From Betaproteobacteria bacterium (GTDB taxonomy: Bacteria > Pseudomonadota > Gammaproteobacteria > Burkholderiales > Rhodocyclaceae), in the NCBI GenBank assembly GCA_004295105.1, contig SHNC01000215.1, forward strand, positions 71,879-135,878: DNA of 64,000 bases, written 5' to 3'. Shown here piece by piece: positions 6,794 to 53,310 of this stretch. The first letter of the stretch is position 1. Each line of letters begins with the position of its first letter. The position numbers were made by a program, and so were the translations under genes. The notes under the pieces were generated by a model. The model was not told where the DNA came from. It saw nothing but the letters and a program-made list of their open reading frames with translations, and searched no databases.

Positions 6794-6866
6794 GTGCGTC
6801 ACAACGCACCGTAGCCTTGAAGGTCTTGGCTACCTGGGCATGTTGTCGGCGTTGCCGACGGACATG
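6794..6866 (-). repeat. Structured leader element, copy A of 4
   Basis: Plus strand: GTGCGT-caca-ACGCAC, GTAGCC-ttgaaggtctt-GGCTAC, ctggg, CATG-tt-GTCGGC-gtt-GCCGAC-gga-CATG. Confidence 0.8.
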
Positions 6867-7300
6867 GGGGCAGATTGCTTCAGGTGATCTATGGGCCGTA
6901 GCGAAAACCCGATTTGCAAGGTGCCCCTTTTTGCCTGCTTGGCCCCGATACCTGAGGAGGGGGCTGGCCAGCAATACCATCGCTACAGTTCGCTGTAGCG
7001 TGGTTCGGGAATCCGGGCGAGACATAACGGCCGCGAAAATTGGGCGGGTGCAAATGGCGGACAAGCGATCGGGAACCGGTCGGCCGGCTGTGATGGCCGT
7101 CGGTCAAGTCGTCGGCCATGCTGCCGCTGACCAGACGTGTCGTTAGCGGCCGATCAGGATCACCGGTCGCTGACCGCAAAATTAGGCCCAGCGGAAGCTT
7201 CCATGACCAGCGAATTCACCCTTTACAGGGCGCGCGAAAAAGCCCTGGCCGAACGGTCTCGGCACAGGGCTTCGGCTTACCAGAAGGATGGTGGCGGCAA

Positions 7301-8629
7301 TCAGACGGCAGCCTGCTTCGCCCCCCATTCTCGCAGCGATTTCATCGCCCCTTCCAGGCGCCCTTGAACATCACGAAGCGGCGCGCAGTCCGGGTAGTGC
7401 TTGCTCAGGAGCCCACGGACTTGCACGAGGTCTGCGAGCAGTCGCTCGCGGACCGGTGCCGGCATGTCCTTCCGGAGTGGCATCGGCAAGGTTCCGTGGT
7501 AATACACGTCGAAGAAGCGCTCGCTGTCGAGTTCTGCCGCGGTGTACTCGGCTTGCAGCCATGAATCCAGCTTGGCCCGAACCTGCTCAACCCGCGCACG
7601 CACCCCCTCGCGGTTACCACAGAGGCCTACTATTCCCTTCAGTAGGGTTCCAACCTCCTCGTGGGTCTCGATGGGCATTCTTCCCTTGGGCATCCGGATC
7701 GTTCGGCCGAGGTCGTAGCCGATGATGCGCGTGGTCTCTGTGTCGCGGCACAGGAAGGGGTCTAGCGGTGCGATCGCACGGAGTCCCGCTTGTTGCTCCA
7801 GCAGCGAACGGAACGTTGGTCGGAATGGGCCGGATACCCCGGACCACTCCGCGAAAACGATCGGCGCCGGTGCGGATTCAAGCACCGCTCGAATAGCGTC
7901 GAAGTGCGCGGCGCTGGTCTCGTGCACAGCGACGAACATCAGGCTGCCGATGTCCGGTGCGTACATCCCTGGCCACGGGGCTTGCTCGATGCGGTATCCG
8001 TGCTGTGCTGCCCAGGCTGCCCGTCGGGCCAACTTCTCCGGTCCAATTGCGCCTTCATACGGTTCGTCGATCATCACTTCGATGCCGCGCTCGGGATCGA
8101 TCCAGTGCGTCGTGTGGTCGGCCGCCGGCAGTGACTCTGCAATCTTCGGTCGGAGAAGCCTACGCCCGTCGGCTGGACGCAGGCCCGTTGCTGCCATGAA
8201 CTGCAACTCGCGGGCGGCGAAACAAAGGGCTTGTCGGGCCGCATCCTGACCGCGATACATGGCCTTGCTTGCGAGGTGATCCGGTGCGCGGCCCCGGAAC
8301 TTGCCCAGGGCGCGACAGGCCCGCAGTTTCCTTGCGTCGATCAGCGATTGCCAGGGGCGCTCGAGACGCAGTTCCATCGTCTCGCGGCCTTCTGCGATGC
8401 TGCGCGGTTCGCGCCAGTATGCGGTGAGGAAGAGACTGTGCAGCGGCTTCGGCGGCTCTGCCCGCTCGTGGCCGAGTGTCGCCAATGCATTGCGGTAGTT
8501 CGCGTACCCGGCCTGCATCGAGGCGAGGTCGAGGGCGTTCGTATGCTGGATGCCTTCGCTCTTGCGCAGAGCATTGGCGAGGCGTTTGATACCGACGATG
8601 GTCGTCGGTCGAATGTCGTTGCCGATCAT
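7301..8629 (-). CDS. DUF5623-like protein of unknown function (accessory insertion in the ICE backbone)
   Basis: 442 aa; N-terminus IRPTTIVGIKRLANALRKSEGIQHTNALDLASMQAGYANY matches my recollection of DUF5623; ATG at 8629 follows GGGAG. Confidence 0.7.
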   Translation of the reverse strand: MIGNDIRPTTIVGIKRLANALRKSEGIQHTNALDLASMQAGYANYRNALATLGHERAEPPKPLHSLFLTAYWREPRSIAEGRETMELRLERPWQSLIDARKLRACRALGKFRGRAPDHLASKAMYRGQDAARQALCFAARELQFMAATGLRPADGRRLLRPKIAESLPAADHTTHWIDPERGIEVMIDEPYEGAIGPEKLARRAAWAAQHGYRIEQAPWPGMYAPDIGSLMFVAVHETSAAHFDAIRAVLESAPAPIVFAEWSGVSGPFRPTFRSLLEQQAGLRAIAPLDPFLCRDTETTRIIGYDLGRTIRMPKGRMPIETHEEVGTLLKGIVGLCGNREGVRARVEQVRAKLDSWLQAEYTAAELDSERFFDVYYHGTLPMPLRKDMPAPVRERLLADLVQVRGLLSKHYPDCAPLRDVQGRLEGAMKSLREWGAKQAAV

Positions 8630-8774
8630 GTTCAACTCCCGGCCCGAATCGTGACGTCACCCGCCAACCGCCATCCGAGCCAGAGGTCGCTCATGAGGGC
8701 CAAGAGATCGAAGGCAGCACTGTCAACAGCTTTGGTGAGACGGGTGCCCGGCTCCTGCCCGGAGCCGAGGCGCC

Positions 8775-8803
8775 ATTGTGCAACCCGAGCGCGTTAGGTG
8801 CAA
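8775..8803 (-). promoter_or_regulatory. Putative sigma70 promoter of the DUF5623-like gene
   Basis: Minus strand TTGCAC-N17-CACAAT, about 140 nt upstream of the ATG. Confidence 0.4.
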
Positions 8804-9005
8804 CTGGCCGCAGCTCTCAGCCCGCCTCGTACGCACTTTCGCTCACGGTACCGAGCACTGCGACGTAGGTGAGTCGCACTGCGGCGCACGCGGTATCGAG
8901 CAGCGCCTGGGCTGCATCACACGGCGGATAGGTCGAGGTAAACAGCACACGCTCTTCGGCGAAGAAAAAGCGGACCATGCCGCGATGGACACGATCCGCT
9001 TGGGG

Positions 9006-9833
9006 TCAGGCTTTCAGCTTGCGCAGGCCATCCGCGAGCAGCCAGAGCGCCCGGTTGAGCCGCACATTCTGGTCGATGCCCTGGACAGGCCGGGTGCGCT
9101 GCTGGCGCCCGTTGGCACTGCGGCCGCTCAGGCCGCCTTTGACGAGGTTCTCCTGGACCCGGTTGAATGTGGACCACAAGTCCGCATGGTTGTCGTCGAA
9201 GCGACGGGGACGCAGGAGCTGGCTTTCCGTGATCGGCAGGGTCCTGTCCGGTTCGTCGTACTTGAGGACCAGGGCCGAGCGGGCGAAGACCTCGGCCTCG
9301 CCGTCGTCGAGCGTGATGGCACGCATGCCGTCGCGCGAGTCCTGCACCTGTTCGAACCCGTCCAGCACCTCGTAGGCGCCCTCGATCACGTGATCGGTGA
9401 CGTTGCCCTTGTGAGGCACGCGCACGTCGGCGAACGTGTCGCCGCATACCAGGCCGTTCTGGCACACGAAACGGAACATGCCCGCCAGCATCTGGTAGCT
9501 GCTGGTGCCATCGTGCGAATTGAGCAGGATGATCTCGTTCGCCTCGGCGCCGTTGATCTGGCTCGCATGGCGAAGGCGCAGCATGTGCTTGGTGTAGTCG
9601 CGGCGGTCCTCCTGGCGCACGCGGGTCTGGCACACCATGAACGGCTGGAAGCCTTCCTTGCGCAGTTCGGTCAGCACAGCCGCCGTGGGAATGTAGCTGT
9701 ACCGCTCGGAGCGGCTTTCGTGCGGGGTGTCCGCGAAGATGGAGGGCGCGACGGTGCGAATCTGGTCGTCGGACAGTGGGTGATTCGACCGCAGCACCGG
9801 GGAGCGATGAGAAAAGCGGGACGCGAGTTGCAT
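9006..9833 (-). CDS. DUF932/DUF945 family protein
   Basis: PHESRSERYSYIPT...KHMLRLR...NSHDGTSSYQMLAGMFRFVCQNG...LWSTFNRVQENL; GGAG RBS. Confidence 0.92.
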   Translation of the reverse strand: MQLASRFSHRSPVLRSNHPLSDDQIRTVAPSIFADTPHESRSERYSYIPTAAVLTELRKEGFQPFMVCQTRVRQEDRRDYTKHMLRLRHASQINGAEANEIILLNSHDGTSSYQMLAGMFRFVCQNGLVCGDTFADVRVPHKGNVTDHVIEGAYEVLDGFEQVQDSRDGMRAITLDDGEAEVFARSALVLKYDEPDRTLPITESQLLRPRRFDDNHADLWSTFNRVQENLVKGGLSGRSANGRQQRTRPVQGIDQNVRLNRALWLLADGLRKLKA

Positions 9834-9923
9834 GACGATCTCCTTGAATGAGAGACCGGGGCCCCGCCCCACCGGGGAAGAACCCCGGCGGGTGGTGTAA
9901 CGCCGCTGACGCGACGGTGGGAA

Positions 9924-10535
9924 TCAGGCCTTGGAGAGATGCCAGTCCTGGGACAGCGGAGCGAACTCGTAGCCCATCACACCGAGACGGTCGCGCTGCT
10001 GACGCAGGATGCGACGATCGACGGTGGCGTCGAGCTTGACGATCTCGCTCAGCGGCCAGAGCGCACCGAACAGCGCCGCGTCGTCCGACTCGGCGGAAGC
10101 GTCGGGGAATTCGGCGGCCGATTCGTTGCCGAACGGCGTCGTGTCGACCAGGGGATCGCACGGGTTGTGCGACTTCGCCTTGGGCTTGGCCTTGGACGTT
10201 GCCGGCACGGGCGCCTGCGCTTCCTCGTCGATCGGATCGACTTCCTGCGGACTCAGCTGGCGGGCTTCGTCGCGGCTCAGGGCATCGATGTTGGACAGCG
10301 TCATCCCGCCCAGGAGGGCACGGATCTCGATGACCATACGGCCGTTGGCACTGTAGGTGGAGGGACGGATCTCGGCAATGACGAAATCGCCCTCGTACTT
10401 GCCTTCGGCGTACTGATCGAGCTCGGCGTTCTTCACGACGAACTCGCCGATCGAGGTCGCGAGGCGGCCGACGTTGAAGTCGCCGTTGCGGCCGTGGATG
10501 GTCTTGATGGCCAGTTGGCCTGGGAGGCTGATCAT
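9924..10535 (-). CDS. DUF3275 family ICE protein
   Basis: MISLPGQLAIKTIHGRNGDFNVGRLATSIGEFVVK; AGGAG RBS; backbone synteny. Confidence 0.85.
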   Translation of the reverse strand: MISLPGQLAIKTIHGRNGDFNVGRLATSIGEFVVKNAELDQYAEGKYEGDFVIAEIRPSTYSANGRMVIEIRALLGGMTLSNIDALSRDEARQLSPQEVDPIDEEAQAPVPATSKAKPKAKSHNPCDPLVDTTPFGNESAAEFPDASAESDDAALFGALWPLSEIVKLDATVDRRILRQQRDRLGVMGYEFAPLSQDWHLSKA

Positions 10536-10589
10536 GAAGGTCTCCTGCGAACGAGAGAGGACAAGGCCCCGGGGATGGGGCCTTGCGGA

Positions 10590-11135
10590 TCAGAACGACT
10601 CGGCAACGGCCAATGCGGGGGCATCGGCCGCGTCGTCGGCAGCATCGGCGACGGGCCTGGACGGCTCCGGTGCCGCGGCTTGCTGCGCGGCGGGCGCGTC
10701 GGACGGGACTTCCGGGTCGCGCTCGTCGCTCTCGGTCGGCTTGGGGTCGGCCTTGTAGACGAGCTTGCCGTCGACCTTGATCCAACTGACGAACAGGAGG
10801 CGGGCCTTGAGGCTCACCCCTTGCTCGCCGGCACGCTTGCCCTTGGAGTAGGTAAAGGTGTCGGTCCACAGGTCGCCCAGGCGGAAGCCGATCAGCACCT
10901 TCCTCTCCGCCTCGACGGCATCGATGCAGCGACGAACCAGGTGCTGCGCTTCCGAGCCCGATACGCGCGTGTCGAAGCGCACATACGAGACGTCATCGCT
11001 GGGACCATTGAGCGCTGCAATGTCGCAGGCCAGGAACGCATCGCCCTTCTTGGGCTTCACTTCGCGGATGCGATTGAGGTACCCGAGGCCGGTGATGTGG
11101 AGGTCGAAGTAGGACTTTTCGGGGGAAGTGGTCAT
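10590..11135 (-). CDS. DUF3577 / STY4534-family ICE protein
   Basis: SYFDLHITGLGYLNRIREV...CDIAALNG...GDLW; AGGAG RBS. Confidence 0.88.
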   Translation of the reverse strand: MTTSPEKSYFDLHITGLGYLNRIREVKPKKGDAFLACDIAALNGPSDDVSYVRFDTRVSGSEAQHLVRRCIDAVEAERKVLIGFRLGDLWTDTFTYSKGKRAGEQGVSLKARLLFVSWIKVDGKLVYKADPKPTESDERDPEVPSDAPAAQQAAAPEPSRPVADAADDAADAPALAVAESF

Positions 11136-11290
11136 GGTGAATCTCCTGAGAACAATGAGGCGGAGACACACCCGACCCAGGCGGGGAAGGTGTGGAACCC
11201 CCGCGTGGGTTTATGGAGCAGCTTGGTGGCATCGCCATCGGAAAGCGATGGACGTTCGCGCGTGGATGCCGGTGCGAACTGGAGTGATCA

Positions 11291-11367
11291 ACGCGGTCGG
11301 AACTGCGTCGTAGCCTCGAGGATCGCGGCTACCTGGGTATGTTGCTGAGGGGAATCAGCAGAACATG
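11291..11367 (-). repeat. Structured leader element, copy D of 4
   Basis: Plus strand: ACGCGG-tcggaa-CTGCGT, GTAGCC-tcgaggatcgc-GGCTAC, ctggg, TATG-t-TGCTGA-ggggaa-TCAGCA-gaa-CATG. Confidence 0.75.
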
Positions 11368-11612
11368 ACATCAGCCTGCCATTCCTCGGCGTGATGGGCC
11401 AGAGGAAAACAGCATCGGAGCTTGACCCGATTCGTCCCTCCGTCGCTTCCCTTGAAAAGGGAGGCTGTCCGCGCGCGCGCCTCTTGCGGATGTCGATCCA
11501 CGCGGACCGCAATTGCCGCAGATGTGGCGCGGATCGCGCGTTTGCAATGGGTACAACAGTGCCCATGGTCATTTTTGTCAGGGAGCGGCTTCCACCACCT
11601 GCGTCGGCCCCC

Positions 11613-11642
11613 TTGTCAGCTCGCGCGCCTGAAAGCTAGACT
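11613..11642 (+). promoter_or_regulatory. Putative sigma70 promoter of the czc cluster (near-leaderless czcI mRNA)
   Basis: TTGTCA-N18-TAGACT ending 8 nt before the ATG at 11651; no SD sequence. Confidence 0.4.
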
Positions 11643-11650
11643 TCCGCCCC

Positions 11651-12007
11651 ATGCGTCGTTGGCTTGCCATCCTCCTGCTCTGTCTATTGCCGCTCCAGGT
11701 GTCCTGGGCAGCGGTGGCCGACTATTGCGCCCACGAGCATGACCGCCAGGCCCAACATTTCGGCCATCACGATGATGAGCACACCGCGTGGTCCGGTCCG
11801 TCCGACAGCCCGGACACGGGCGGCAAAGTCAAGCTGGCGCACGATCACAACCACAACCATCTCTCGGGGTTCGTCGGCCTGCTTGCCGAGCCGACCGGCA
11901 ACCAGCGCCTTGCCAGCACCTCCATCCACCCCGACCACGGGACGCGGACCTACCCGGCCGTCCCGCCCGATCAGCCCGAACGCCCTCAATGGTCTCGTCC
12001 CGCCTGA
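11651..12007 (+). CDS. czcI: CzcI-like His-rich exported protein
   Basis: Signal peptide, YCAHE, HFGHH, His-rich tract, C-terminal PERPQW; directly upstream of czcC. Confidence 0.7.
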   Translation: MRRWLAILLLCLLPLQVSWAAVADYCAHEHDRQAQHFGHHDDEHTAWSGPSDSPDTGGKVKLAHDHNHNHLSGFVGLLAEPTGNQRLASTSIHPDHGTRTYPAVPPDQPERPQWSRPA

Positions 12008-12098
12008 AACGGCGAGACGAGCGTCCCGGATTTTCCTGATCTAGCGCAAGGCGCTAGCGCTTCGTTTCGCCGAATTCCTTCCCTGTTCGGAGAATTCG

Positions 12099-13391
12099 AT
12101 GCGAAACCTCATGTTGCCGCTGCTGCTGGCGGCCTTCTCCATGCATTCCGCGGTGGCGCAGGATGTCGGCCCCGACGTGGGCGGCAGTGTGCTGTCCGAT
12201 GCCACACGAAACCCGGCGCTCGAGCCGTCGGGCCCGCTGAGCCTGGCCGCGGCGCTCGACCTGACGCTGCAGGCCAATCTCGATCTGGCGCTTGCCGGCC
12301 ATGAAGTGGACGCGACCGCGGCGGCGGTGCGCCAGGCCGGCCTGCTGCCCAACCCCGAGCTGTCGGCGCTGGTCGAAGACACCCGTCGGGACTCGCGCAC
12401 CGTCACGCTGCAACTGAACCAGCCGCTCGAGCTGGGCGGCAAGCGCGCCGCGCGCGTCGATGCGGCCGAGCGCGCACACGATGTCGCCGCGGCCGACCTC
12501 ATCACCCGGCGCACCGAACTGCGCGCCGACGTGACTGCCGCATTCTTCGACCTGCTGGTCGCCCAGGAGCGCGCGCGCCTGGCGGCCGAGTCCGCCGACC
12601 TGGCCCAGCGCGCGACCACCGCCGCAGCGCGGCGCGTGGCGGCGGGCAAGGTGTCGCCGGTGGAAGAAACCAAGGCGCGGGTGGCCGAGGCCGCGGTGAA
12701 GGTCGAGTCGACCCAGGCGGCGAGCGAATTGCGCGCGGCCCGGCGGCGGCTGGCCGCCTTCTGGGGCAATGCGGCGCCGCGCTTCGACGCCGCGGTCGCG
12801 CCGGTGGGCGTCCCGGTCGAGCCGCGTGCCTACGGCGAACTGGCGATGCAGCTCGAAACAGCGCCGGCGCTGGCGCGCGCGGGCCTCGAGATCGAGCGGC
12901 GGCGCGCGCTGGTCGAGGTCGAACGGGCGCGCCGCGTTCCCGACCTCACGGTGAGCCTCGGCGTGAAGCGCGACGAATCGCTCGGGCGTGACCAGGCCAT
13001 CCTTGGTGTGTCCGTGCCGCTGCCGCTGTTCGACCGCAACCAGGGCAACCTCGCCGAAGCTCTCAAGCGCCAGGATCTGGCCCGCGATGAGCGCGCCGCG
13101 CTGCGCATCCGCCTCGAGCGCGACGTGGCCGACGCCTGGGAACGGCTCGACAGCGCCCGGGGCGAGGCGGCAGCGCTGCAGGACGAGGTCCTGCCCGGTG
13201 CCCGCCAGTCCCTCGACGCCGCCACCAAGGGCTTCGAACTGGGCAAGTTCGGCTTTCTCGACGTTCTCGACGCCCAGCGCACCCTGTTCCAGGCCAGGGC
13301 CCAGCACCTGCGCGCCCTGGCGGCGGCCTACCGCGCGCGGGCCGACCTCGATCGCATCCTGGGCGAGCCGGCTGCGCCGGTTGCCCGCTGA
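12099..13391 (+). CDS. czcC: TolC-family outer membrane factor of the Co/Zn/Cd RND system
   Basis: LPNPEL, QPLELGGKR, SVPLPLFDRNQG, FLDVLDAQRTL; first gene of the CBA operon. Confidence 0.9.
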   Translation: MRNLMLPLLLAAFSMHSAVAQDVGPDVGGSVLSDATRNPALEPSGPLSLAAALDLTLQANLDLALAGHEVDATAAAVRQAGLLPNPELSALVEDTRRDSRTVTLQLNQPLELGGKRAARVDAAERAHDVAAADLITRRTELRADVTAAFFDLLVAQERARLAAESADLAQRATTAAARRVAAGKVSPVEETKARVAEAAVKVESTQAASELRAARRRLAAFWGNAAPRFDAAVAPVGVPVEPRAYGELAMQLETAPALARAGLEIERRRALVEVERARRVPDLTVSLGVKRDESLGRDQAILGVSVPLPLFDRNQGNLAEALKRQDLARDERAALRIRLERDVADAWERLDSARGEAAALQDEVLPGARQSLDAATKGFELGKFGFLDVLDAQRTLFQARAQHLRALAAAYRARADLDRILGEPAAPVAR

Positions 13392-13408
13392 GACTCCCGG
13401 AGCAATCC

Positions 13409-14914
13409 ATGACAACAAGCAAACCCAAGAAACAGATCGTTGCCATCGCCATCGTGATCGCCCTCGGCGTCGCGCTTGGCGCGGCCATCCTCGCCGTGGA
13501 TCGAAACATGTCCGGCGCTGCCGAGGGTGGCCACGGCCACGCCGAGGAAGCGGCAGGCGATCATGACGAAGCGCTCGTCCGTGGCCCCTACGGCGGCCGC
13601 CTGTTCACCGAGAGCGACTACGGCCTGGAAGTGACGATCTTCGAGCAGGGGGTCGAACCGCAGTTCCGCCTGTACACCTACCGCGACGGCAAGCCCCTGG
13701 CGCCCAAGGACAGCGCGGTGGAGCTGACACTGGAGCGGCTGGGCCGGGCGCCGCAGGTGTTCCGCTTCGCCGCCGAGGGCGATTACCTGAAAGGCGATGC
13801 GATCGTGAGCGAGCCGCATTCCTTCAAGGTGACGGTGAATGCCAGCCACGCCGGCAAGCCCTACCAGTTCGGTTATGAGCAGGTCGAGGGGCGGGTCAGC
13901 ATGAGCGACGAGCAGCTCGCGCAGGCCGGGGTGGAACTGGCCACCGCCGGTCCGGCGCGCCTGGCGACCCGCCTGGAGCTTCTGGGCGAGGTCCGCTACA
14001 ACAGCGATCGCACCGTGCAGGTGGTGCCGCGGCTGGCCGGGCGGGTGGAGTCGGTCGCAGTGAGCGCCGGCGAGCGCGTGAAACAGGGCCAACTGCTGGC
14101 GGTGCTGGCGAGCCAGTCGCTGGCCGACCAGCGCGGCGAGCTGCTCGCAGCCGAGCAGCGCCTGGCGCTGGCGCGCTCGACCCACGAGCGCGAGAAGACC
14201 CTGTGGCAGGAGAAGATCTCGGCCGAACAGGACTATCTGCAGGCCCGGACCGCGCTGCAGGAGGCGACGATCGCCGTGCAGGGCGCGCGCCAGAAGCTGG
14301 CGGCCTTGGGTGGGGCGCCCAGCAAGGGAGACCTGACGCGCTACGAGCTGCGCGCGCCGATCGCCGGCGTGGTGACCGACAAGCGCATCGCGGTCGGCGA
14401 GGTGGTGCGCGAAGACAGTGCCGTGTTCACCGTGTCCGACCTGTCGACGGTCTGGGTCGAGGCCACCGTGCCGGCCGCCGACCTGGGCGCGATCGCCGAG
14501 GGGCAGTCGGCCAGCGTGCGCGCCAGTGCCTTGTCCGAGCCGGCCGAGGGCCGCATCGCCTACGTCAGCGCACTGGTCGGCGAGCAGACGCGGGCGGCGA
14601 CCGCGCGCATGGTGCTGCCCAACCCGAACGGGGCATGGCGCCCCGGCCTGCCGGTGAAGGTGGCGGTGGTCGCCTCCGAGACCGAGGTGGCGGTGGCCGT
14701 CGCCGCCGATGCCATCCAGACGGTGCGCGACGGGAAGGTGGTGTTTGGCCGCTACGGCGACGCGCTGGAGGCGCGCCCGCTGGAGCTGGGTCGCAGCGAC
14801 GGCCGCTACGTCGAGGTGAAGGAGGGGCTGCAGGCCGGCGAGCGTTACGCCGCCGCCAACAGCTTCGTGATCAAGGCCGAGCTGGGCAAGGCCGGCGCCA
14901 GCCACGACCACTGA
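13409..14914 (+). CDS. czcB: RND periplasmic adaptor
   Basis: N-terminal TM, His-rich segment, lipoyl/hairpin domains, C-terminal KAGASHDH. Confidence 0.9.
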   Translation: MTTSKPKKQIVAIAIVIALGVALGAAILAVDRNMSGAAEGGHGHAEEAAGDHDEALVRGPYGGRLFTESDYGLEVTIFEQGVEPQFRLYTYRDGKPLAPKDSAVELTLERLGRAPQVFRFAAEGDYLKGDAIVSEPHSFKVTVNASHAGKPYQFGYEQVEGRVSMSDEQLAQAGVELATAGPARLATRLELLGEVRYNSDRTVQVVPRLAGRVESVAVSAGERVKQGQLLAVLASQSLADQRGELLAAEQRLALARSTHEREKTLWQEKISAEQDYLQARTALQEATIAVQGARQKLAALGGAPSKGDLTRYELRAPIAGVVTDKRIAVGEVVREDSAVFTVSDLSTVWVEATVPAADLGAIAEGQSASVRASALSEPAEGRIAYVSALVGEQTRAATARMVLPNPNGAWRPGLPVKVAVVASETEVAVAVAADAIQTVRDGKVVFGRYGDALEARPLELGRSDGRYVEVKEGLQAGERYAAANSFVIKAELGKAGASHDH

Positions 14915-15009
14915 GGCGCAGGCCCCATGTCACAACCCGCACGCTCGTCGTTTGCCGCTATCCAAGGGGGCGCATGCCTCCTACCGGACGGTCCGTCAGG
15001 AGACCTCGC

Positions 15010-15351: not shown

Positions 15352-18534
<3,183 letters not shown>

Positions 18535-43477: not shown

Positions 43478-43559
43478 TGGGGGTCGCCTTTTCGATTTGG
43501 GGGTAACGAATGAATTGCCGTGGTGGTCTGCAGTATGCCGAGGGCTGGCCGACAGCAGG

Positions 43560-43586: not shown

Positions 43587-43598
43587 GGGGGCATGCCG

Positions 43599-44099: not shown

Positions 44100-44162
44100 G
44101 GGAATCTCCATCTCGGTTGGGATTGCGTTGTTGTCATATGAACCATGCGGCCCGCCGGCCGC

Positions 44163-45566: not shown

Positions 45567-45583
45567 GAACGTCTCCGGAAAGC

Positions 45584-46996
45584 TCAGTGGCCACCGCCGG
45601 CTTCTGCCGGCGATGCGCCCGATTGAAGGGTGAGCGGTGCGATCGGCTGGCCGAGCAGGCTCGCCTTCAGCGCCGCTTCGGCACGCCAGAAGTCGCCCTC
45701 GGCTTCTATTGCCTGCACCGAACTCGTGACCTGCGCGCGCGCCTCGGCAAGGAGGTCGAAGACTCCAATTAACATGCCGTTGTATTGGAGTACCGACTCT
45801 TCGACGATATTGCGACGTAGCGGCACAATCTCGTCGCGGTAGTGGCGCGCCAGGTCGTAGGCGCTGCGATAGGCGTCATACGCCGTGCGCACATGCGAAC
45901 TGGCATTGCGGGCGACATTGACCGTGCGATTGAACGCGGCCAGATAACGCGCTTCGCCTCCAGCGCGGGACGCGTCGCCGAAGTCGAACAGCGGCAGCGG
46001 AAGTTCGACCTCGAAGCCACGCTGCGTCGGCTTGCCGGTTTCGCTGTTGCTCACCCCCGATACATGCAGCCCATTGACCACGCTGGTCACGCGCGTAAGC
46101 CCAAGGTCCTTCGCCGTCCGCTCCAGATCAGCCCGGGCGATACGCAGGTCAAGCCGCTCCTCCAGCAGTGTCTTCCCGGCGGCACCTTCATCCATGGGCG
46201 CCTTCGGCAACTCGGGTAGGCGCTCTGGCAGATTGAGGGCCGTGGCCTGAACCGGCGTCAGGCCAAGGCGCCGCACGAGTGCCTCGCGCGCGGCGGTCGC
46301 ATTCTGCCGGGCCCGAATCAGGGCCGCCGCGGACTCGGCCGCCAGGGCCTGCTCGCGCGCGCGCTGCAGGCGGCTGAAATTGCCGGTCGCCTGCATGCGT
46401 CGCGCCAGTTCCGCGCTCGTGCCCGTGGCCATGGCCACGTCCTCGCGATAACGGGCGACCTGGCGTGCGGCGACGGCGTCGATCCAGGCCTGGCGCACCT
46501 CGGTGACGGTGTTCAGAAGCGCGCTCGACGCCTGTAGCCGCGTCTGCTGCTGCCGGTACTCCGCGCGCTCCAGCCTGGCCGGCAATAACAGAAGGTCGAG
46601 CAGGGAAACGCTCAAAACGCGTCCGATATCAAGGTCGCGCTCGCCTCCGCCCGAGCGATACAGATGCTCGAAGCTGAACACTGGATTGGCGATGCGTCCC
46701 GACTGCGTCGCATCCGCTGACGCGGTGGCCGCCTCCGCCAGCAGGACCTGGAAGCCCGGGCTGTAACCGAGCGCGATGCGTACCGCATCCTCCATCTGCA
46801 AGGGCTGGGCAAGCAGGCGGTCGACTTCGCTGCCCACCGCCTCGCGCTCCGTATCCGAGCGGAGCCAGCGCACTTCGCTCCCGGTCTGCTCGCGTGCGAA
46901 ACGCTGTACCTCACTAAAGTTGTCGTTGACAGCGACGCTGGCGCAGCCGCTGAGGACAGCAGCGGCAATGAGGGAAAGCGGAAGCGCGAATCTCAC
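45584..46996 (-). CDS. TolC-family lipoprotein of the copper oxidase operon
   Basis: Lipobox LSGC; IANP; ELPLPLFDFG; LQYNGMLIGVFDLL; GTG start. Confidence 0.88.
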   Translation of the reverse strand: MRFALPLSLIAAAVLSGCASVAVNDNFSEVQRFAREQTGSEVRWLRSDTEREAVGSEVDRLLAQPLQMEDAVRIALGYSPGFQVLLAEAATASADATQSGRIANPVFSFEHLYRSGGGERDLDIGRVLSVSLLDLLLLPARLERAEYRQQQTRLQASSALLNTVTEVRQAWIDAVAARQVARYREDVAMATGTSAELARRMQATGNFSRLQRAREQALAAESAAALIRARQNATAAREALVRRLGLTPVQATALNLPERLPELPKAPMDEGAAGKTLLEERLDLRIARADLERTAKDLGLTRVTSVVNGLHVSGVSNSETGKPTQRGFEVELPLPLFDFGDASRAGGEARYLAAFNRTVNVARNASSHVRTAYDAYRSAYDLARHYRDEIVPLRRNIVEESVLQYNGMLIGVFDLLAEARAQVTSSVQAIEAEGDFWRAEAALKASLLGQPIAPLTLQSGASPAEAGGGH

Positions 46997-47313
46997 GGTT
47001 TCGCTCCCGGTTGGGCAGCATTCGGCGTGCGGGCTTGCCGCAGGTGACCGATGTGGCCACCCAGGCGCTCGACCTCGTCATTAACGTCGCGCCAAGGACG
47101 CATGGGTTCGTCCGCCTGATAGCGACGATAGGCCTCAAGAGGTGATCGATAGGCAGGCAGGGGAGGCCGATCGGTCTGATCGCGTTGATCTCCCCTTTGT
47201 TGGGTGTCCGTGACCGGTGGTCCGTACCGCGATTCGGTCGCCTGTGCGCCAAACGCCAGGCTGAGCCCAAGCCCGACGCTAGCGCCGAAAAGCAGCATGC
47301 TGTTTCTCTTCAT
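46993..47313 (-). CDS. Exported hypothetical protein of the copper oxidase operon
   Basis: Signal peptide; YRSPLEAYRRY...WRDVNDEVERLGGH. Confidence 0.75.
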   Translation of the reverse strand: MKRNSMLLFGASVGLGLSLAFGAQATESRYGPPVTDTQQRGDQRDQTDRPPLPAYRSPLEAYRRYQADEPMRPWRDVNDEVERLGGHIGHLRQARTPNAAQPGAKP

Positions 47314-47390
47314 GGGGATCACTCGCTCGTTATTTTTCGTCGTCGCGCTCGGGAGGCGTGCGCGAAGTCACTCCGCCTCCCGGCGGCGGG

Positions 47391-47858
47391 TTAATTCGGG
47401 GCGGGCTGGGCCGGCGCCGACTGTGTGCCCATCATTTGTTCCATCATCTTCATATGCTGCTGCATGAGCCTCATGTGCTCGTTCATGACCTTGGGATCCA
47501 TCATCATGCCGCCCATCGACCCGGGAGCACCGGTCGGACCGCGCGCGCCCTTCATCTGTCCACCCATGGGGCCGGCCATCGGCCCGCTCATCGGGCACCC
47601 CGCAGACGTCGCCTTCGAAGCGGCATCGAGGGCCTGGATCTGCTCCTCCATCAACGCCATGCGGCGTTCCGGATCGGTGGTTTCTCGAATCGATTTCATG
47701 CGCGCCTGAAGGGCCGGCACGCTGGCGGCCGGCGACCAAGCCTGGGCCTGACGAGTTGCCGTTGGGGTGCCCTGAGCGAACACCGGCCCGGCAAGCAAGG
47801 CGCCGGACAAGGCGAGCACCGGCATGACGCCAGCCAGAACGTGCAGATTGCGTTTCAT
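47391..47858 (-). CDS. Met-rich exported protein (putative Cu(I)/Ag(I) binder)
   Basis: Signal peptide; about 20 Met, concentrated in GPM repeats and a C-terminal HMRLMQQHMKMMEQMM helix; GGAGG RBS. Confidence 0.75.
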   Translation of the reverse strand: MKRNLHVLAGVMPVLALSGALLAGPVFAQGTPTATRQAQAWSPAASVPALQARMKSIRETTDPERRMALMEEQIQALDAASKATSAGCPMSGPMAGPMGGQMKGARGPTGAPGSMGGMMMDPKVMNEHMRLMQQHMKMMEQMMGTQSAPAQPAPN

Positions 47859-47948
47859 GATCGACCTCCGAGTGAATGGACGTGACACGACGATGGCAGG
47901 ACAGATCCAGCCATCTGGCAATCTTGCTCGCACCCGCCTGTCCCCAAG

Positions 47949-47975
47949 CTGACCGTCGGATTACATTTCTGTAAT
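47949..47975. promoter_or_regulatory. CopR-type box in the divergent promoter region
   Basis: CTGAC-N6-ATTAC-atttc-TGTAAT. Confidence 0.75.
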
Positions 47976-48043
47976 CCTGTAATCCGGCCTATACCCCGAG
48001 GCAAACTTGAAACCTGTTACGGGCTTCATTAGGTTGGGCTGCC

Positions 48044-48724
48044 ATGAAAATCCTCATCGTCGACGACGAGCTGAAGACGGGTGAGTACCTGCGCCAAGGC
48101 TTGGCCGAGGCCGGTTTCGTCGTTGATCTTGCGCGCGACGGCCTCGATGGTCTGCACTTGGCCTTGAACGGCACCTACCACCTGATCGTGCTCGACGTGA
48201 TGCTTCCCTCCCTGGACGGCTGGGGCGTGCTTCAAGCCCTGCGCCGCAACGGATGCGAAACGCCAGTGCTGTTTCTGACCGCACGCGATCAGGTCGAGGA
48301 CCGCGTGCGCGGACTCGAACTGGGCGCGGACGACTACCTCGTCAAACCCTTTGCGTTCTCCGAACTGCTGGCGCGGGTGCGGACACTGCTGAGGCGCGGA
48401 CGCAGCCATGAGCCCGACGTGCTGCGTTCGTCGAATCTGGAACTGGATCTGCTGAGGCGCCGCGTGACGCGCTGCGGCCAGCGCGTCGACCTCACCGCCA
48501 AGGAGTTCGCGCTGCTCGAGCTGCTGCTGCGTCGCCAGGGAGAGGTGCTGCCCCGTTCCTTGATCGCGTCGCAGGTGTGGGATATGAATTTCGACAGCGA
48601 CACCAACGTGATCGAGGTTGCGGTGCGCCGCCTGCGGGCCAAGGTCGACGACCCCTTCGATCCGAAACTGATCCGCACGGTGCGAGGCATGGGTTACGTG
48701 CTCGAGGCCGTGGAGCCGGCTTGA
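48044..48724 (+). CDS. copR: Copper response regulator (CopR/CusR)
   Basis: [44 protein letters not shown]; adjacent to the cop genes. Confidence 0.88.
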
Positions 48725-48726
48725 CG

Positions 48727-50133
48727 ATGATCCGCTCATTGTCCCTGACGGCCCGGCTCACGCTGCTCTTCGCAGCGCTGACGGCAAGCCTGCTGATCGC
48801 CGCGGGGATCGTTCTGGGGCGCGCCCTCGATGCCCATTTCCGCGAACTGGACCTGCACGAGCTGCATGGCAAGCTCACGCTGATCCGCAACCTGCTGGAG
48901 CACAGAACCGCCGAGACCACGCCGTCCGACCTGTTTGTGCGGTTGGATGACTCCTTTGTCGGCCACGACAGTGTGGGGGTGCTGTTGCGTGGGAGCGATG
49001 GCCAGGTTCTGCACGTCATCCGTCGCGAGCATTTCGATGACGCGCTTCTGGCCGGCACTCCACCGACTGAAGGAGTGCGCCAGTGGTCAGTCGGCGGGCG
49101 GCCGCACATCGGCCTTGCGGCAGGTGTTGCCTTGCCGACCGATGGTTCGCGCCAGCAGGACGTTCAGCTCCTCATCGCGCTGGACCCCTCGCACCACAGC
49201 CAGTTCCTGGTCTCGGTCCGGCGCGTATTGTGGGCGGGTATCGCGCTTGGCGCATTGCTGGCCGGCTTCGTCGGCTGGTTCGCCGCGCACCGGGGGTTGG
49301 CCCCGCTGCGGAGGGTCAGCGCCACGGCGCGCGACCTGTCGGCCCAGCGCCTCGATGAACGCCTGCACGAGGGGGACGCGCCGCCGGAGGTGCGCGAACT
49401 GGTCGACGCCTTCAACGCCATGCTCGAACGACTGCAAGCGGCCTTTCAGCGCCTGGCGGACTCTTCCGCGGACATCGCCCATGAATTGAGGACACCGATC
49501 TCGAACCTGATGACGCAGACCGCGGTCGCGCTGTCGAAGCCCCGCAGCGCCGACGAGTACCGCGACGTGCTGGCGTCGAATCTCGAGGAGTACGAGCGCA
49601 TCGCGCGCATGGTGGGCGACATGCTGTTCCTGGCGAAGGCCGAGGAGAACAGCCTGGCGCATGACAATGAACTCATCGACCTCACCGACGAAGCCCGTGC
49701 GCTGGCCGATTTCTACGAGGCGCTGGCCGAAGAACATGGGGTGCACATCGTGTGCCACGGCCACGCCAGGGTGCGCGGCGATCGCCTGATGCTGCGGCGG
49801 GCGCTGTCGAATCTGTTGTCCAACGCCCTGCGACACACCCCCGAAGGCGGCCGGATCGAGATTGCCATCGAAGCCCTGGAGAGTCAGGTCAAGCTCGCGG
49901 TACGCAACATTGGGGACCCAATTCAGCCCGACCAGCTTGAACGCATCTTCGAGCGCTTCCATCGCGGCAGCGACAAACGCGAACGCCATGGGGAAGGCGC
50001 CGGGCTGGGGTTGGCGATCACGCGTTCGATCGTGCGCGCTCATGGTGGCGAGATCGCGGCCGACTCGTCGCACGGCGTGACCACCTTCACGATCACATTG
50101 CCGTTGCCACCCGACGGGCAACAGGCTTCGTGA
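48727..50133 (+). CDS. copS: Copper sensor histidine kinase (CopS/CusS)
   Basis: SLTARLTLLF, HF...DLHEL, AHELRTP, NLLSNA, GLGLAI. Confidence 0.88.
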   Translation: MIRSLSLTARLTLLFAALTASLLIAAGIVLGRALDAHFRELDLHELHGKLTLIRNLLEHRTAETTPSDLFVRLDDSFVGHDSVGVLLRGSDGQVLHVIRREHFDDALLAGTPPTEGVRQWSVGGRPHIGLAAGVALPTDGSRQQDVQLLIALDPSHHSQFLVSVRRVLWAGIALGALLAGFVGWFAAHRGLAPLRRVSATARDLSAQRLDERLHEGDAPPEVRELVDAFNAMLERLQAAFQRLADSSADIAHELRTPISNLMTQTAVALSKPRSADEYRDVLASNLEEYERIARMVGDMLFLAKAEENSLAHDNELIDLTDEARALADFYEALAEEHGVHIVCHGHARVRGDRLMLRRALSNLLSNALRHTPEGGRIEIAIEALESQVKLAVRNIGDPIQPDQLERIFERFHRGSDKRERHGEGAGLGLAITRSIVRAHGGEIAADSSHGVTTFTITLPLPPDGQQAS

Positions 50134-50176
50134 GCCGCGAACCACGCCGCCCTCAGCGACGGGGATACGGGCCAAG

Positions 50177-50203
50177 ATTACAGAATCGTAATCAGCCGGT
50201 CAG
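50177..50203. promoter_or_regulatory. CopR-type box upstream of the DUF411 gene
   Basis: Minus strand CTGAC-N6-ATTAC-gattc-TGTAAT. Confidence 0.7.
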
Positions 50204-50263
50204 CCTGGCGTCGGGGTCGACCTGCCACACTTTCCATCAGACACATCGACTGGAGAAATTGCC

Positions 50264-50710
50264 ATGACGTTGTTGAAACCCGTGCTTCGATCCGTACTGC
50301 TTGGCCTGGCAATCGTTGCCGGCGGCGCCACTGCGCAAGCCAGCCCCAAAGTCGAAGTGTTCAAGAGTCCTTACTGCGGCTGCTGCGGGAAGTGGGTCGA
50401 GCATCTGCGCAAGAGCGGCTTCGACGTCGTGACGAAGGATGTCGATAACGTCCCGGCCGCAAGGGCGTCGCTCGGAATGCCCGACCGCTTTGCGTCTTGT
50501 CATACGGCCAAGGTCGGGCCGTACTCCATCGAAGGTCACGTCCCCGCCGACGACATCCGACGCCTTATCTCCGAGTCTCCAAAGGCAGTAGGACTGGCTA
50601 CGCCGGGCATGCCGCAGGGTTCGCCCGGAATGGAGACCTCGACCCCACAACCCTATGAGACGCTTCTAGTCGGACTTGACAGAAGCGCGACGATTTTTGC
50701 CCGACACTGA
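50264..50710 (+). CDS. DUF411 (CopG-like) periplasmic metal-binding protein
   Basis: CGCC, SCHTA, IEGHVPA, PGMPQGSPGME. Confidence 0.92.
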   Translation: MTLLKPVLRSVLLGLAIVAGGATAQASPKVEVFKSPYCGCCGKWVEHLRKSGFDVVTKDVDNVPAARASLGMPDRFASCHTAKVGPYSIEGHVPADDIRRLISESPKAVGLATPGMPQGSPGMETSTPQPYETLLVGLDRSATIFARH

Positions 50711-50773
50711 GGGCCCGTTCGGCGAGCGACAGCCCTGGGGACGTCTTTCCGGCACCCTTAACCTGAACTCGCT

Positions 50774-51016
50774 CTATGGCTGGTTGCGAAGCTCACCGGT
50801 CATATCGATGACCGCATTGTGGAGAAAGCGAGGGGCTGCTGATTGGCCGGATTGCGACAACTCCAGGCCCGAGAGATTGCGCCGGACAACGGTCATCGGC
50901 AGCCAGCCAAACTCCTCGTCAACACGCGCCCGCTCTGGGTGCAGGGGTCGGCGGTTGCCGGTACGGGGCGGCTCAGGACGTGCTGGAGATGGGCGTGAGC
51001 GCGCGGTGAGAGCCAC
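50774..51016 (-). other. Possible small ICE backbone ORF or remnant at the cargo junction
   Basis: 80-aa ORF co-oriented with the backbone directly after DUF3085; no recognisable motif. Confidence 0.3.
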
Positions 51017-51067
51017 GGCGCCAGGAAATGAGGCGCCCCCGGAGCGGGGGCTGGGAATGCGGGACGG

Positions 51068-51432
51068 TCAGATGCCGTTTCGCGTCCGCACAACGGCCCG
51101 CAGCGACAGGTGCGCTGCCGTGGCAGACACCTAGAGGTCGCCATCGTCGCTTAGGATGAGTGCGAAGACGCCATGCGCGGATCGAAGAACTCACCAAAAT
51201 CATCGCCACCGAACTCGGCGCGCGCCAGCTCCCACCAGTCGTCGAACGCATCGATATCCGGATTGCAGCACACTGCGTATGCGACGAGCCTCTGGCGTCC
51301 ATCGGGCCGATGTTCGTCACGCCGGGCCAGGAAGGACACGCCCTGGTCCTTGACCACGACGACGCGGCATCGGTTGACCGCCGCCTCGGAAAGCACGGGC
51401 GGTAGGTCGGTGCCCTTGCATCGAAAAGACAT
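51068..51432 (-). pseudogene. DUF3085 family protein, frameshifted and with an in-frame stop
   Basis: MSFRCKGTDL...VKDQGV...CNPDIDAFDDWWELARAEFGGDDFGEFFDP; the expected tail DGVFALILSDDGDL*VSATAAHLSL is in another frame and contains TAG. Confidence 0.8.
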
Positions 51433-51497
51433 GAATGTGATCTCCAGGGAGCGGATTGAGGAACCTCCCGCCGGGTGAGCGGGAGGCTTCGTGGCGG

Positions 51498-52295
51498 TCA
51501 GTGCCGAACAGACTTGCGACCGGACAGGCATTGCACGCGGATGCGCCGCCAGCTCCCGTCGTCGATGAGACGTTCCAAGGTCTCGCCAAGAGCGTCAAAG
51601 AACACTTCATCGACCCGTTCGACCAGCTCGCCGTCACGGTGCAATTCCACCGAATAAAGGTCGAGCCCGCGCCTGTACTGGACAGCGACCCGCCCTTGGA
51701 ACTTTGCCGTGACCACCGTGAAGGCGATGGTCGGTGGAGTCGCGATGATGTCCTTGGGCAGCGGATCGACCCAGGTGAAATCACGCGCGCCGGCATCCAC
51801 GAGCAGATGGGTGATGCGCCGATAGCCGTCTGGAGCGGGCAACTGTTCCATCTGCTGAATCAGGTCCTGCAGCTCGGGACAGCGGGGTTCCGGGATCGGC
51901 AGCTTGGCCGGCGCGGAACCGAGCACGAACCGCTGAACCTTGTACGGCTTGCCGTCGGCAGTGAACTCGGTGTGCTCCTCGGGCGTGTCCGCCCGCTGAC
52001 CGTCGAAGCGGCGTCTGGCATAGGGTTCAACCTGCACCTTGGCCCCCTCGTCGGGCACTTCGGTCACGAGCGTCCGATCGAGCACCGCGAACTCGGCCCG
52101 CCCCGTCTTGACGACGATGGCCTCGTCGGTGGCGACGACGACCCTGCCCTCGAAAGGCTTTGGGTCGATATGAAAGCCCAGGGTCGAAACCTTGGGCTGG
52201 CCGTCGAAGACGCTGAACTTGAACGAACGGACGTTGGAAGGCAGATGACCGACAACAAGCGTTGGCATCTGGGCACGGATGGCTTGGGTATCCAT
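51498..52295 (-). CDS. Conserved ICE hypothetical protein (often mis-annotated as a GTPase)
   Basis: MDTQAIRAQMP...IDPKPFEG...PYARRRFDG...RITHLLVDAGA; AAGGAG RBS; no P-loop visible. Confidence 0.82.
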   Translation of the reverse strand: MDTQAIRAQMPTLVVGHLPSNVRSFKFSVFDGQPKVSTLGFHIDPKPFEGRVVVATDEAIVVKTGRAEFAVLDRTLVTEVPDEGAKVQVEPYARRRFDGQRADTPEEHTEFTADGKPYKVQRFVLGSAPAKLPIPEPRCPELQDLIQQMEQLPAPDGYRRITHLLVDAGARDFTWVDPLPKDIIATPPTIAFTVVTAKFQGRVAVQYRRGLDLYSVELHRDGELVERVDEVFFDALGETLERLIDDGSWRRIRVQCLSGRKSVRH

Positions 52296-52400
52296 GGGGA
52301 GACTCCTTGTGGCAACCAAGGGACTCCCGCCCGCAAAGGAGGTCGGTCCCTTGAGGGTGAGGTGGATGGACGCGGGTGCGCCCGGAGAACGAAACAACCA

Positions 52401-52473
52401 GCACAGCGAACCGCGCCACAGTCTTGAAGGTCTTGACTGCCTGGGCATGCTGCTGGCAACGCCAGCGAACATG
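52401..52473 (-). repeat. Structured leader element, copy B of 4
   Basis: Plus strand: gcacag-cgaa-ccgcgc, aCAGTC-ttgaaggtctt-GACTGc, ctggg, CATG-ct-GCTGGC-aac-GCCAGC-gaa-CATG. Confidence 0.8.
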
Positions 52474-52637
52474 CGGCCAGCGTGCGGCTCACGGCGGCGG
52501 GCGTCTGCCGGGAATCGGCAATCTGCCGAGACCGCGTTCCGCAGAAGTGGAGCACCGCGACGAGGGACATCGCCCCGAACGGGGACGCATGTCCCTCCTG
52601 GGGTGGCATGAACAGACGGTGGATTGCCAGGTGCGGC

Positions 52638-53030
52638 TCACCAGCCGGTGTAGTGCAGTGTGAGATCGGCGATGACCTTGCGCCGTTCCAGATCGAGACC
52701 GCCGAAGTCCGACAGCCCCTCAAAGCCGCAATGCTTGAGCATCGCACCGCCCTCGCGGGAGTTGTAGAAGCTCGCCATCGCCGACAGGAACATGCGTTGA
52801 CCGCTGCTCAGCACACCCAGGGCGTCGTTGAGCATCAGCATGTTGGGCCGCAGGTCCCACTTGGTGGTGGCACGCTGCAGACCATCGCGGGTACCGTCGC
52901 CGAACCACTCGTGGCCGGCGATCTGCGCGCCGCGCTTCCAGGCCTCGAAGAAGGCCTGCGGTGCAGCTTCTAAGTGCGCCTGTTCCAGCGCGATCTGATC
53001 GAGCACGTCTTTGGGCAGAGACAGATTCAT
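52638..53030 (-). CDS. Conserved ICE hypothetical protein
   Basis: AFFEAWKRG...WFGDG...LSSGQRMFL...FYN...LDLERR; AAGGAG RBS. Confidence 0.8.
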   Translation of the reverse strand: MNLSLPKDVLDQIALEQAHLEAAPQAFFEAWKRGAQIAGHEWFGDGTRDGLQRATTKWDLRPNMLMLNDALGVLSSGQRMFLSAMASFYNSREGGAMLKHCGFEGLSDFGGLDLERRKVIADLTLHYTGW

Positions 53031-53235
53031 GAGAGGACTCCTTGAAGAATGGGGAATCAGGGGTGAGCGAACTACGTTCAGGCATGGGAATCCAGGGCGC
53101 GCTGTGCTGCGAGGTGGTTTGGGGAGCACGCATCCCGTAGGGGATGGGGTTTCCCTCGGGTGGTTGAAAAAGGGTGCATCGTCGCCAAGTCAGCGAGCGT
53201 CCGCGGTGGGCGATGCGAAGCGGACTGGATCGGTC

Positions 53236-53310
53236 AACGCGGCGAACCGCGTTGCAGTCTTGGAACCTGGACTGCCTGGGCATGCCACTGACAACTGTCA
53301 GCAACGCATG
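53236..53310 (-). repeat. Structured leader element, copy C of 4
   Basis: Plus strand: AACGCGG-cgaa-CCGCGTT, GCAGTC-ttggaacctg-GACTGC, ctggg, CATG-cca-CTGAC-aact-GTCAG-caacg-CATG. Confidence 0.8.

Follow-up and report, generated by a model that had tools for sequence, protein, structure and literature searches.

The radC motif was described by Weinberg et al. in 2010 (Genome Biol 11:R31, PMC2864571) as a structured RNA that was first seen in a sludge metagenome, numbered 167 representatives, and was classed as "switch ? complex", and a survey of integrative and conjugative elements (ICEs) by Cury et al. in 2017 (NAR 45:8943, PMC5587801) found radC and STAXI to be the dominant RNA genes of ICEs of mating-pair formation class G (MPF-G). 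That survey counts radC and links it to anti-restriction, without a promoter link or a mechanism; the family is catalogued, yet without functional characterization, and no function assignment for the RNA was found in the literature searched. The other system of direct relevance is ICEclc, whose transfer-competence promoters form the BisDC regulon; radC is mentioned neither by Sulser et al. in 2022 (PMC9286271) nor by Daveri et al. in 2025 (PMC12409273). We analyzed a 64,000-nucleotide stretch of a contig from Betaproteobacteria bacterium (SHNC01000215.1, positions 71,879 to 135,878; hereafter the window) which, judging by its gene content, is an ICE of the ICEclc/PAGI-2 type, and which carries four copies of radC RNA behind a promoter motif in fixed register. 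We consider it reasonably probable that radC is here a transcribed, pseudoknotted 5′ leader that acts after transcription has started.

Identity and fold of the four radC RNA copies

A search of the window with Rfam RF01754 (radC RNA) returns four matches and no others above threshold, all on the minus strand and all covering the complete model (1-149 of 149), with scores of 92.0-106.1 bits against a gathering threshold of 40 bits. These are copy A (6721-6876, 92.0 bits, and 106.8 bits with our own covariance model), copy D (11229-11377, 106.1 bits), copy B (52327-52483, 95.2 bits, with a UUCG loop on P3), and copy C (53176-53320, 105.0 bits). An initial annotation of this DNA had placed four elements of ~75 nt with three hairpins at these sites, and the sites are confirmed, the elements aligning well on the minus strand. 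The three hairpins (P1-P3) are real, but about half of the element had been missed: the full element is about twice the length first described, with a 3′ domain (linker and P4) in addition. Because the Rfam search that the same annotation had proposed gives a full match to an existing family, the novelty of the element is gone, and the four elements are new instances of the known radC RNA family.

On the minus strand, P1 reads as a CAUG-stem-CAUG hairpin, P2 consists of 6 bp and an 11-nt loop, and P3 often carries a UUCG loop; the CTGGG string first noticed is the CCCAG junction, and CCAGTYCG is part of the conserved linker. CTGGGYATG occurs six times in the window against 1.24 expected. No fifth copy was found in the window by a filter-free search with our own covariance model, the next best hit reaching 12.8 bits, and there were no radC matches in viral contigs or phage records. 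RF01754 also matches the ICEclc-like loci L070, L096, L100, and L086. The elements had been said to head ICE core transcription units, which is borne out by the same-strand genes behind all four; the start codons at 6687, 11135, 52295, and 53030 are plausible and are reached 31-146 nt after the full element has ended. As is typical of radC, every copy is thus upstream of a gene on its own strand, and a RadC-JAB gene follows 35 of 191 homologous copies.

Our own covariance model was built from the four copies on the Rfam structure and yielded 41 copies in the window and 25 genome loci, and 152 copies in 100 metagenome loci; the first genome-wide DNA pattern was too loose (25 of 120 loci were real), and a tighter pattern was used on the metagenomes. 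Across the 36 distinct sequences of the genome loci and window, 94.6% of cells are paired and 28 of the 35 pairs have changed on both sides, and across the 133 distinct sequences of the metagenome loci the corresponding values are 94.8% and 33 of 35, compared to 26-44% paired in a control in which the pairing partner was slid by 1-3 columns. The structure of radC is under selection, as had been proposed from the four copies. On the gene-sense strand, G-U exceeds A-C by 108 to 17 in the genome set and by 391 to 63 in the metagenome set (~6:1), and by 245 to 55 when two positions with a G-U consensus are left out; it is this excess that identifies the gene-sense strand as the one on which the fold is selected. 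The wobble pairs had initially been described as mixed between strands, and they do look so in the four copies, but the bias is ~6:1 across 169 distinct homologues.

At least one covarying pseudoknot exists in the radC family beyond the Rfam drawing. In this pairing (pseudoknot 1), a GRYC on the 5′ side of the P2 loop pairs with the GRYC immediately 3′ of P3, its four positions being occupied by UA (69) or CG (43), AU (77) or GC (30), GC (96) or GU (28), and CG (114), with slid controls at 10-48%. Its state switches within gene types, with GAUC/GAUC (10) and GGUC/GACC (9) both present in the RadC type, and it can form in all four window copies; in copy A, GACC of the P2 loop can pair with the GGUC directly after P3, and in copy D the loop-linker pairing is GAUC/GAUC. 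Only helices that change state within a single gene type were accepted as extra ones, because an all-against-all covariation scan was swamped by correlations between paralogue subtypes. Two further helices, a and b, cross each other in the 3′ domain of the RadC, DUF3577, 80-aa, and C subtypes. Helix a is GUUCGC/GCGAAC (variants GUCCGC/GCGGAC and GCUCGC/GCGAGC) and helix b is GCAUCC/GGAUGC (variants GCAUCG/CGAUGC, GCACCC/GGGUGU, and GCAUUC/GAAUGC); copy D has GUUCGC/GCGAAC and GCAUC/GAUGC, and copy C has GUCCGC/GCGGAC and GCAUCG/CGAUGC. Both compete with the 3-bp outer P4 helix of Rfam, with which they are mutually exclusive, and the 3′ domain of the B and A subtypes is of a different kind. Rivas 2020 names radC among the families with extra covarying pairs, and the crossing helices described here may be those detected in that work.

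In copy B, P3 and a U-rich tract are flagged as terminator-like at 52418-52399 (minus strand), and B-type copies are generally alike in this respect, such that the two together could form an attenuator in the B subtype. The same U-rich tract supplies the 3′ strand of pseudoknot 1 (GGUU) in B-type copies. Two other candidate features were rejected, namely a conserved leader peptide (the AUG...UAG frame of copy A has 11 codons, is broken in D, and has no stop in B) and a CsrA/RsmA site at the 3′ GGAUGC, which is unconserved in the DUF3577-type copies (CGAUGC).

A promoter motif in fixed register and its counterpart in ICEclc

When flanks are aligned ungapped on radC position 1, a bipartite motif, AA..GG-N11-TnCCGWTT, is found to end 30 nt upstream of this position, with AA at -55/-54, GG at -50/-49, T at -37, CCGWTT at -35 to -30, G at -22, C at -1, A at +1, and U at +5. 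The ungapped profile is obtained from 30 distinct genome flanks, which were not chosen on A+1, and again from 87 distinct flanks of an independent metagenome collection, which were kept for carrying A+1 and U+5. C-1, A+1, and U+5 are nearly invariant, and A+1 is invariant in the 30 genome-set flanks. There are no insertions or deletions between -55 and +12, and the stretch from -29 to -2 is poorly conserved; just ahead of the motif, many loci have a typical terminator that belongs to the upstream gene. The core GCCGWTTYCC reads as part of a weak inverted repeat, AAW..G-N14-C..WTT, centered at -42.5 from A+1, and a center near -42.5 is the geometry of a class-II activator site. This weak inverted repeat resembles that described for the BisC site (PMC12409273). 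Readings of the motif as a sigma-54 or extracytoplasmic function (ECF) sigma factor promoter are not favored, the spacings fitting poorly.

We scored the window with a weight matrix trained on loci outside it only, for which shuffle maxima average 13.8 and peak at 21. The motifs of copy D (11403-11434, minus strand, CGAATCGGG...GATGCTGTTTTCCT) and copy B (52509-52540, minus strand, GGAACGCGG...ATTGCCGATTCCCG) both score 26.5 and exceed every shuffle, that of copy A (6902-6933, minus strand, -57 to -26 from radC position 1, CAAAAAGGGG...AATCGGGTTTTCG) is borderline at 16.1, and the weak motif of copy C (53347-53378, minus strand, CTAAGGCGGG...GATTCGGCTTTCTC) is within the chance range at 11.8, its position and type being as in orthologues such as L048:2609. 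The core GCCGTTTCC lies at -35 to -27 from radC position 1 in B, D, and A, and weakly in C. A fifth motif, with no radC behind it, is present at 57951-57982 (minus strand, score 22.3), 63 nt upstream of an AcaB-like gene, and is probably the counterpart of ICEclc PinR. The promoter motif is upstream of the coordinates initially annotated, and the element described there is not itself the motif. The -35/-10-like pairs that had been read on the plus strand of that element fail a standard sigma-70 scan; their TTGAAG falls in the single-stranded P2 loop, and the final T of the supposed -10 is unconserved.

Going by the match between sequences, the core of this motif is the published promoter motif of ICEclc transfer competence (the BisDC regulon), as GCCGTTTCC is printed in S3 Fig of Sulser et al. 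(PMC9286271) for PalpA, PinR, P88400, and P67231. Three of the printed promoters map onto radC-bearing loci. P81655 shares 98% identity with a radC copy that precedes a DUF3577 gene (L100:4469-4511), and P58432 shares 95% with copies of the RadC type; P88400 finds its match in the promoter motif that precedes a radC copy of L096 by 16 nt. An overlap with ICEclc promoters had been suspected from the outset, and it takes a specific form: the 27-bp MEME "promoter motif" given for P81655 and P58432 in S3 Fig (PMC9286271) is radC P1 plus CAUGCC. Because the printed sequences match radC copies, the S3 Fig motif for these two sites is P1 and not the shared promoter motif, which in L100 lies ~35 nt upstream of the radC element, and the published alignment of P81655 and P58432 on P1 is likely in the wrong register. 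The printed ICEclc sequences carry bases that would break P1 pairs when compared to their relatives (L100:4462-4607, L117:2446-2593, and L096:4486-4675), with GTGAGCG in place of GTCAGCG; these differences may be a copying artifact or may be real.

P88400, P81655, and probably P84835 drive radC leaders, and the "P58432 promoter" is a promoter-less radC copy between genes. Sulser et al. (PMC9286271) found no independent promoter at P58432 and no depletion of reads upstream of ORF58432, and this lack of a promoter of its own fits the mapping of P58432 onto radC P1. In the same study, read coverage peaked upstream of ORF81655, and control at the post-transcriptional level was suggested. In earlier work by Gaillard (2010), a weak primer-extension product was obtained ~250 bp upstream of the ORF81655 start codon, and rapid amplification of 5′ cDNA ends (5′RACE) failed at 58432, 81655, and 88400; in the near-identical locus L100, radC position 1 lies 235 bp upstream from the start codon. 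At PalpA, P67231, and Pint, and at the AcaB-like promoter of the window, the motif is present and there is too little room for radC, in a comparison of these four promoters; PinR lies 175 bp from its start codon.

Not all radC copies carry the motif, and they fall into two classes, promoter-bearing (all four window copies) and intercistronic. The commonest gene family associated with radC, the 265-aa family of copy B (42 of 191 copies), has the motif in 39 of 39 cases; it is likewise present in 27 of 30 copies before DUF3577 genes (the copy D type, 31 of 191), 20 of 24 before an ~80-aa family (24 of 191), and 17 of 17 before the 218-aa family of copy A (18 of 191), compared to 0 of 33 before RadC-JAB genes. 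In the RadC type, an upstream 262-aa open reading frame (ORF) extends across P1 and has as its stop codon the UAG with which P2 begins (...EMPADVVGDMPR*), in 26 of 27 cases. As this frame is translated through P1, ribosomes must unfold the 5′ half of the RNA. RadC-type loci include L081, L044, L078, L056, L053, L011, and L117.

A probable transcribed leader and its alternatives

In the reading that we favor, transcription would start between -22 and +1, as suggested by the geometry of the motif and the approximate published primer extension, which would make radC the extreme 5′ leader of late ICE transcripts. Its compact 5′-terminal fold would then stabilize the mRNA and/or set its translation, and one shared trans-acting factor probably binds it, a factor that we propose because six unrelated gene families carry the same leader. 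Before RadC genes, the same fold would work between genes, without a promoter. A cis-acting leader RNA was among the initial suggestions, remains the best reading, and is also the classification given by Rfam. A more far-reaching version, which we regard as possible but rather doubtful, is that radC is the dedicated leader of a BisDC sub-regulon, in which activator site, start site, and leader would form one fixed-register module, and the leader would be a factor- or signal-dependent checkpoint on accessory establishment genes (DUF3577, RadC, the orphan methyltransferase operon, and others). If this were true, the ICEclc "promoter motif" at P81655/P58432 would be this RNA and not a protein-binding site.

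Several points weigh against a transcribed leader. A conserved -10 element is not visible in the aligned flanks, and the analysis yielded no trans-acting factor, no ligand, and no expression platform. Element and start codon are separated by the variable 31-146 nt given above, and simple occlusion of the ribosome-binding site is therefore ill-suited as a mechanism. The folding energies of single sequences are unremarkable and do not separate the strands, with Z-scores between -1.5 and -2.1 for the minus strand and between +0.6 and -3.4 for the plus strand, and with the three hairpins recovered on both. Moreover, the alignments were fitted to the structure and strand of the model, which biases the pair and G-U counts somewhat in that direction, and the paralogue subtypes are non-independent, which inflates apparent covariation between many column pairs. 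Public RNA data were of no help in locating start sites: 5′ ends taken from RNA contigs were rejected, their breaks coinciding with 30-nt graph overlaps and strain variants, and the "RNA" runs from isolates consist of 50-120 kb genome-like contigs and are unusable for this purpose. In two metatranscriptome runs, contig depth within P4 of copy B (52336-52347) is ~2-4-fold higher on the gene side; this step could be a processed 5′ end, but it coincides with a strain-variant branch point and is not trustworthy.

The same fold could in principle serve at the level of DNA. If the elements were operator or promoter palindromes in double-stranded DNA, bound by BisC/BisDC or another regulator, RNA structure would be a by-product, and such a role would account for the MEME motif of P81655 and P58432 falling on P1, for the BisC chromatin immunoprecipitation (ChIP) peaks at these promoter regions (PMC12409273), for the invariant distance between element and promoter motif, and for the many single-stranded positions that are sequence-invariant. 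However, a protein operator would be expected to keep its sequence, whereas 28-33 of the 35 pairs change and yet stay complementary; the G-U excess is strand-specific, and two non-nested long-range pairings covary. The motif common to the radC-less ICEclc promoters sits upstream of radC and not inside it, and the RadC-type copies lie between genes without a promoter, at a place where published work found no promoter activity, such that a promoter role at the DNA level is hard to square with them. We thus regard the operator explanation as improbable. A structure in single-stranded DNA on the transferred strand, either a Frpo-like early promoter in the recipient, as raised in the initial annotation, or an ssi-type priming site, draws on the resemblance of radC-associated genes to leading-region establishment genes (DUF3577, RadC, DUF932, orphan methyltransferase, helicase), and on the published observation that deleting ORF81655-75419 or ORF88400-84388 leaves ICEclc transfer between isogenic strains unaffected. 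DNA hairpins also tolerate G-T, and covariation alone therefore cannot separate RNA from single-stranded DNA of the same strand. A Frpo-type promoter, however, needs its fold in the template strand, and the wobble bias favors the non-template strand (the 391 to 63 of the metagenome set); the TTGAAG put forward as its -35 belongs to the 11-nt loop of P2, the scan scored nothing sigma-70-like on either strand, and the putative promoter would fire away from the genes. For a priming site, in turn, the fixed 35-nt register to a double-stranded promoter motif and the invariant C-1/A+1 have no role. Taken together, this makes a single-stranded DNA element very improbable.

Closer to the reading of radC as a transcribed leader is the proposal that such a leader acts on the transcribing polymerase, as a put/EAR-like antiterminator or as a riboswitch-like attenuator that senses a transfer-competence signal. 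Its complex pseudoknotted fold with invariant unpaired nucleotides, the "switch ? complex" label of Weinberg et al. (PMC2864571), the invariant register to the promoter, the P81655 transcript of ~14.5 kb (Gaillard 2010), the terminator-like P3 and U-tract of B-type copies, and the mutual exclusion between the outer P4 helix of Rfam and both helix a and helix b are all in keeping with this. Several radC units, however, consist of one short gene followed by a terminator, and antitermination would therefore be unneeded in them; the U-tract after P3 is limited to one subtype, and there is no association with ligand-related genes, the targets being heterogeneous. We consider action on the polymerase unlikely, although it deserves more weight than the two DNA-level explanations. 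Least of all do we favor a view of radC copies as recombination sites for the gain and loss of units of gene and leader, which is extremely improbable: radC-headed gene sets do differ between ICEs, and an in-register fusion of copies B and C that lacks 835 bp occurs in two wastewater runs (see below), but similar repeats that undergo ordinary homologous recombination yield just such in-register fusions, no association with a dedicated recombinase was seen, and the covariation, strand bias, and fixed promoter register would be left unexplained.

Gene context of the window and comparison with known systems

Copy A is followed by a gene at 6031-6687 (minus strand) for a 218-aa protein with no family match, belonging to the family found behind 18 of the 191 copies. 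It heads an apparent minus-strand operon of this gene, a DUF6094/Eco57I-like methyltransferase gene (4853-6382), and a ResIII/SNF2-related helicase gene (2074-4431), a gene set that looks like the orphan-methylase kind expected of an anti-restriction or establishment function. The gene behind copy D (10590-11135, minus strand) encodes a DUF3577/STY4534-family ICE replication protein (Pfam 3.7e-61, NCBIfam 5.6e-60) and is followed by DUF3275 and DUF932 genes. Those behind copy B (51498-52295, minus strand, 265 aa) and copy C (52638-53030, minus strand, 130 aa) have no family match; the proteins downstream of copies A, B, and C gave nothing in Pfam, NCBIfam, or PHROGs, and the 265-aa protein also nothing in a PDB sequence search. 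The target genes of radC are accessory DNA-handling or establishment genes and not transfer machinery. In two wastewater/aquatic RNA runs, copies B and C are fused in register (joints 52434>53270 and 52452>53288), and the intervening 835 bp absent from this variant comprise the 130-aa gene and the copy B promoter. Units of radC plus gene thus behave like exchangeable cassettes, probably by way of homologous recombination from copy to copy.

The left core of the element encodes ResIII/SNF2-related helicase, DUF6094 methyltransferase, DUF5623, DUF932, DUF3275, and DUF3577 proteins. An rve-type transposase gene is present at 332-1423. Between copies D and B lies ~40 kb of cargo (~11.6-51 kb) with metal-resistance genes, among them RND and Cus-type efflux systems, a CusS-like kinase, a multicopper oxidase, and a P-type ATPase; the cargo starts directly upstream of the copy D promoter motif. 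The right core is one same-strand block with genes for topoisomerase III, SSB, DUF3158, AcaB-like (57115-57888, Pfam AcaB), DUF2857, ParA, and AlpA proteins, and we read the stretch from AlpA to topoisomerase III as the putative ICEclc regulatory block. The window also carries a bisS site at 56106-56128 (unstranded, GAGCTATCCCCTGGGGATAGCTC (GAGCTATCCCCnGGGGATAGCTC), with 0 mismatches and 0 expected by chance), the site at which, in ICEclc, BisD is loaded as a ParB-like clamp (PMC12409273). The site is present as a single copy in the window, versus two in ICEclc, and is located shortly beyond the 3′ end of the SSB gene. Proteins of 571 and 200 aa are the candidates for BisD and BisC, and Pfam shows no ParB domain in them; neither a relaxase gene nor an oriT was recognized in the window.

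radC has been an orphan motif since 2010, and the present results tie it to the best-studied ICE of the family, such that its function becomes directly testable in an existing system, with ICEclc reporter fusions in Pseudomonas putida. The results would also account for two oddities in the published data, the mismatch between read coverage upstream of ORF81655 and reporter output, and a promoter motif at a site without promoter activity (P58432).

Two of the comparisons suggested initially are with systems of conjugative plasmids and prove to be more distant. In Frpo, a single long, imperfect hairpin forms in the template strand that is transferred, and -35 and -10 are rebuilt in it as duplex. 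radC shares with Frpo and ssi its place, as a structured element, before genes of the establishment type on a conjugative element, but it differs in having several short hairpins, a fold favored on the non-template strand, and no -35/-10 in duplex. The CUP repeats of IncN plasmids (pKM101) are DNA repeats of nearly identical sequence with a promoter and a repressor site, and they are not reported to covary in a structure-preserving way; as dispersed repeats before leading-region genes they are alike to the radC copies, and the analogy is one of position only.

The window copies are much closer to RF01754 (PMC2864571), with which they share the four-hairpin layout, the position in the 5′ untranslated region of DNA-related proteobacterial genes, and the absence from phages, and from which they differ in nothing. 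The motif came first from a sludge metagenome, and the runs that contain most of the window are likewise activated-sludge metagenomes. To this family we add a modest amount of new content: the fixed module of promoter motif and leader, the division of the copies into promoter-bearing and intercistronic ones, the placement of ICEclc late promoters on radC, and two extra covarying helices that cross. As in the MPF-G ICEs surveyed by Cury et al. (PMC5587801), radC is present in several copies in an ICE of ICEclc/PAGI-2 type. Finally, the window shares with the BisDC promoters and regulatory region of ICEclc (PMC9286271, PMC12409273) the GCCGWTTYCC core, an exact bisS site, and what we read as the regulatory gene block, and the printed P81655, P88400, and P58432 map onto radC-bearing loci.

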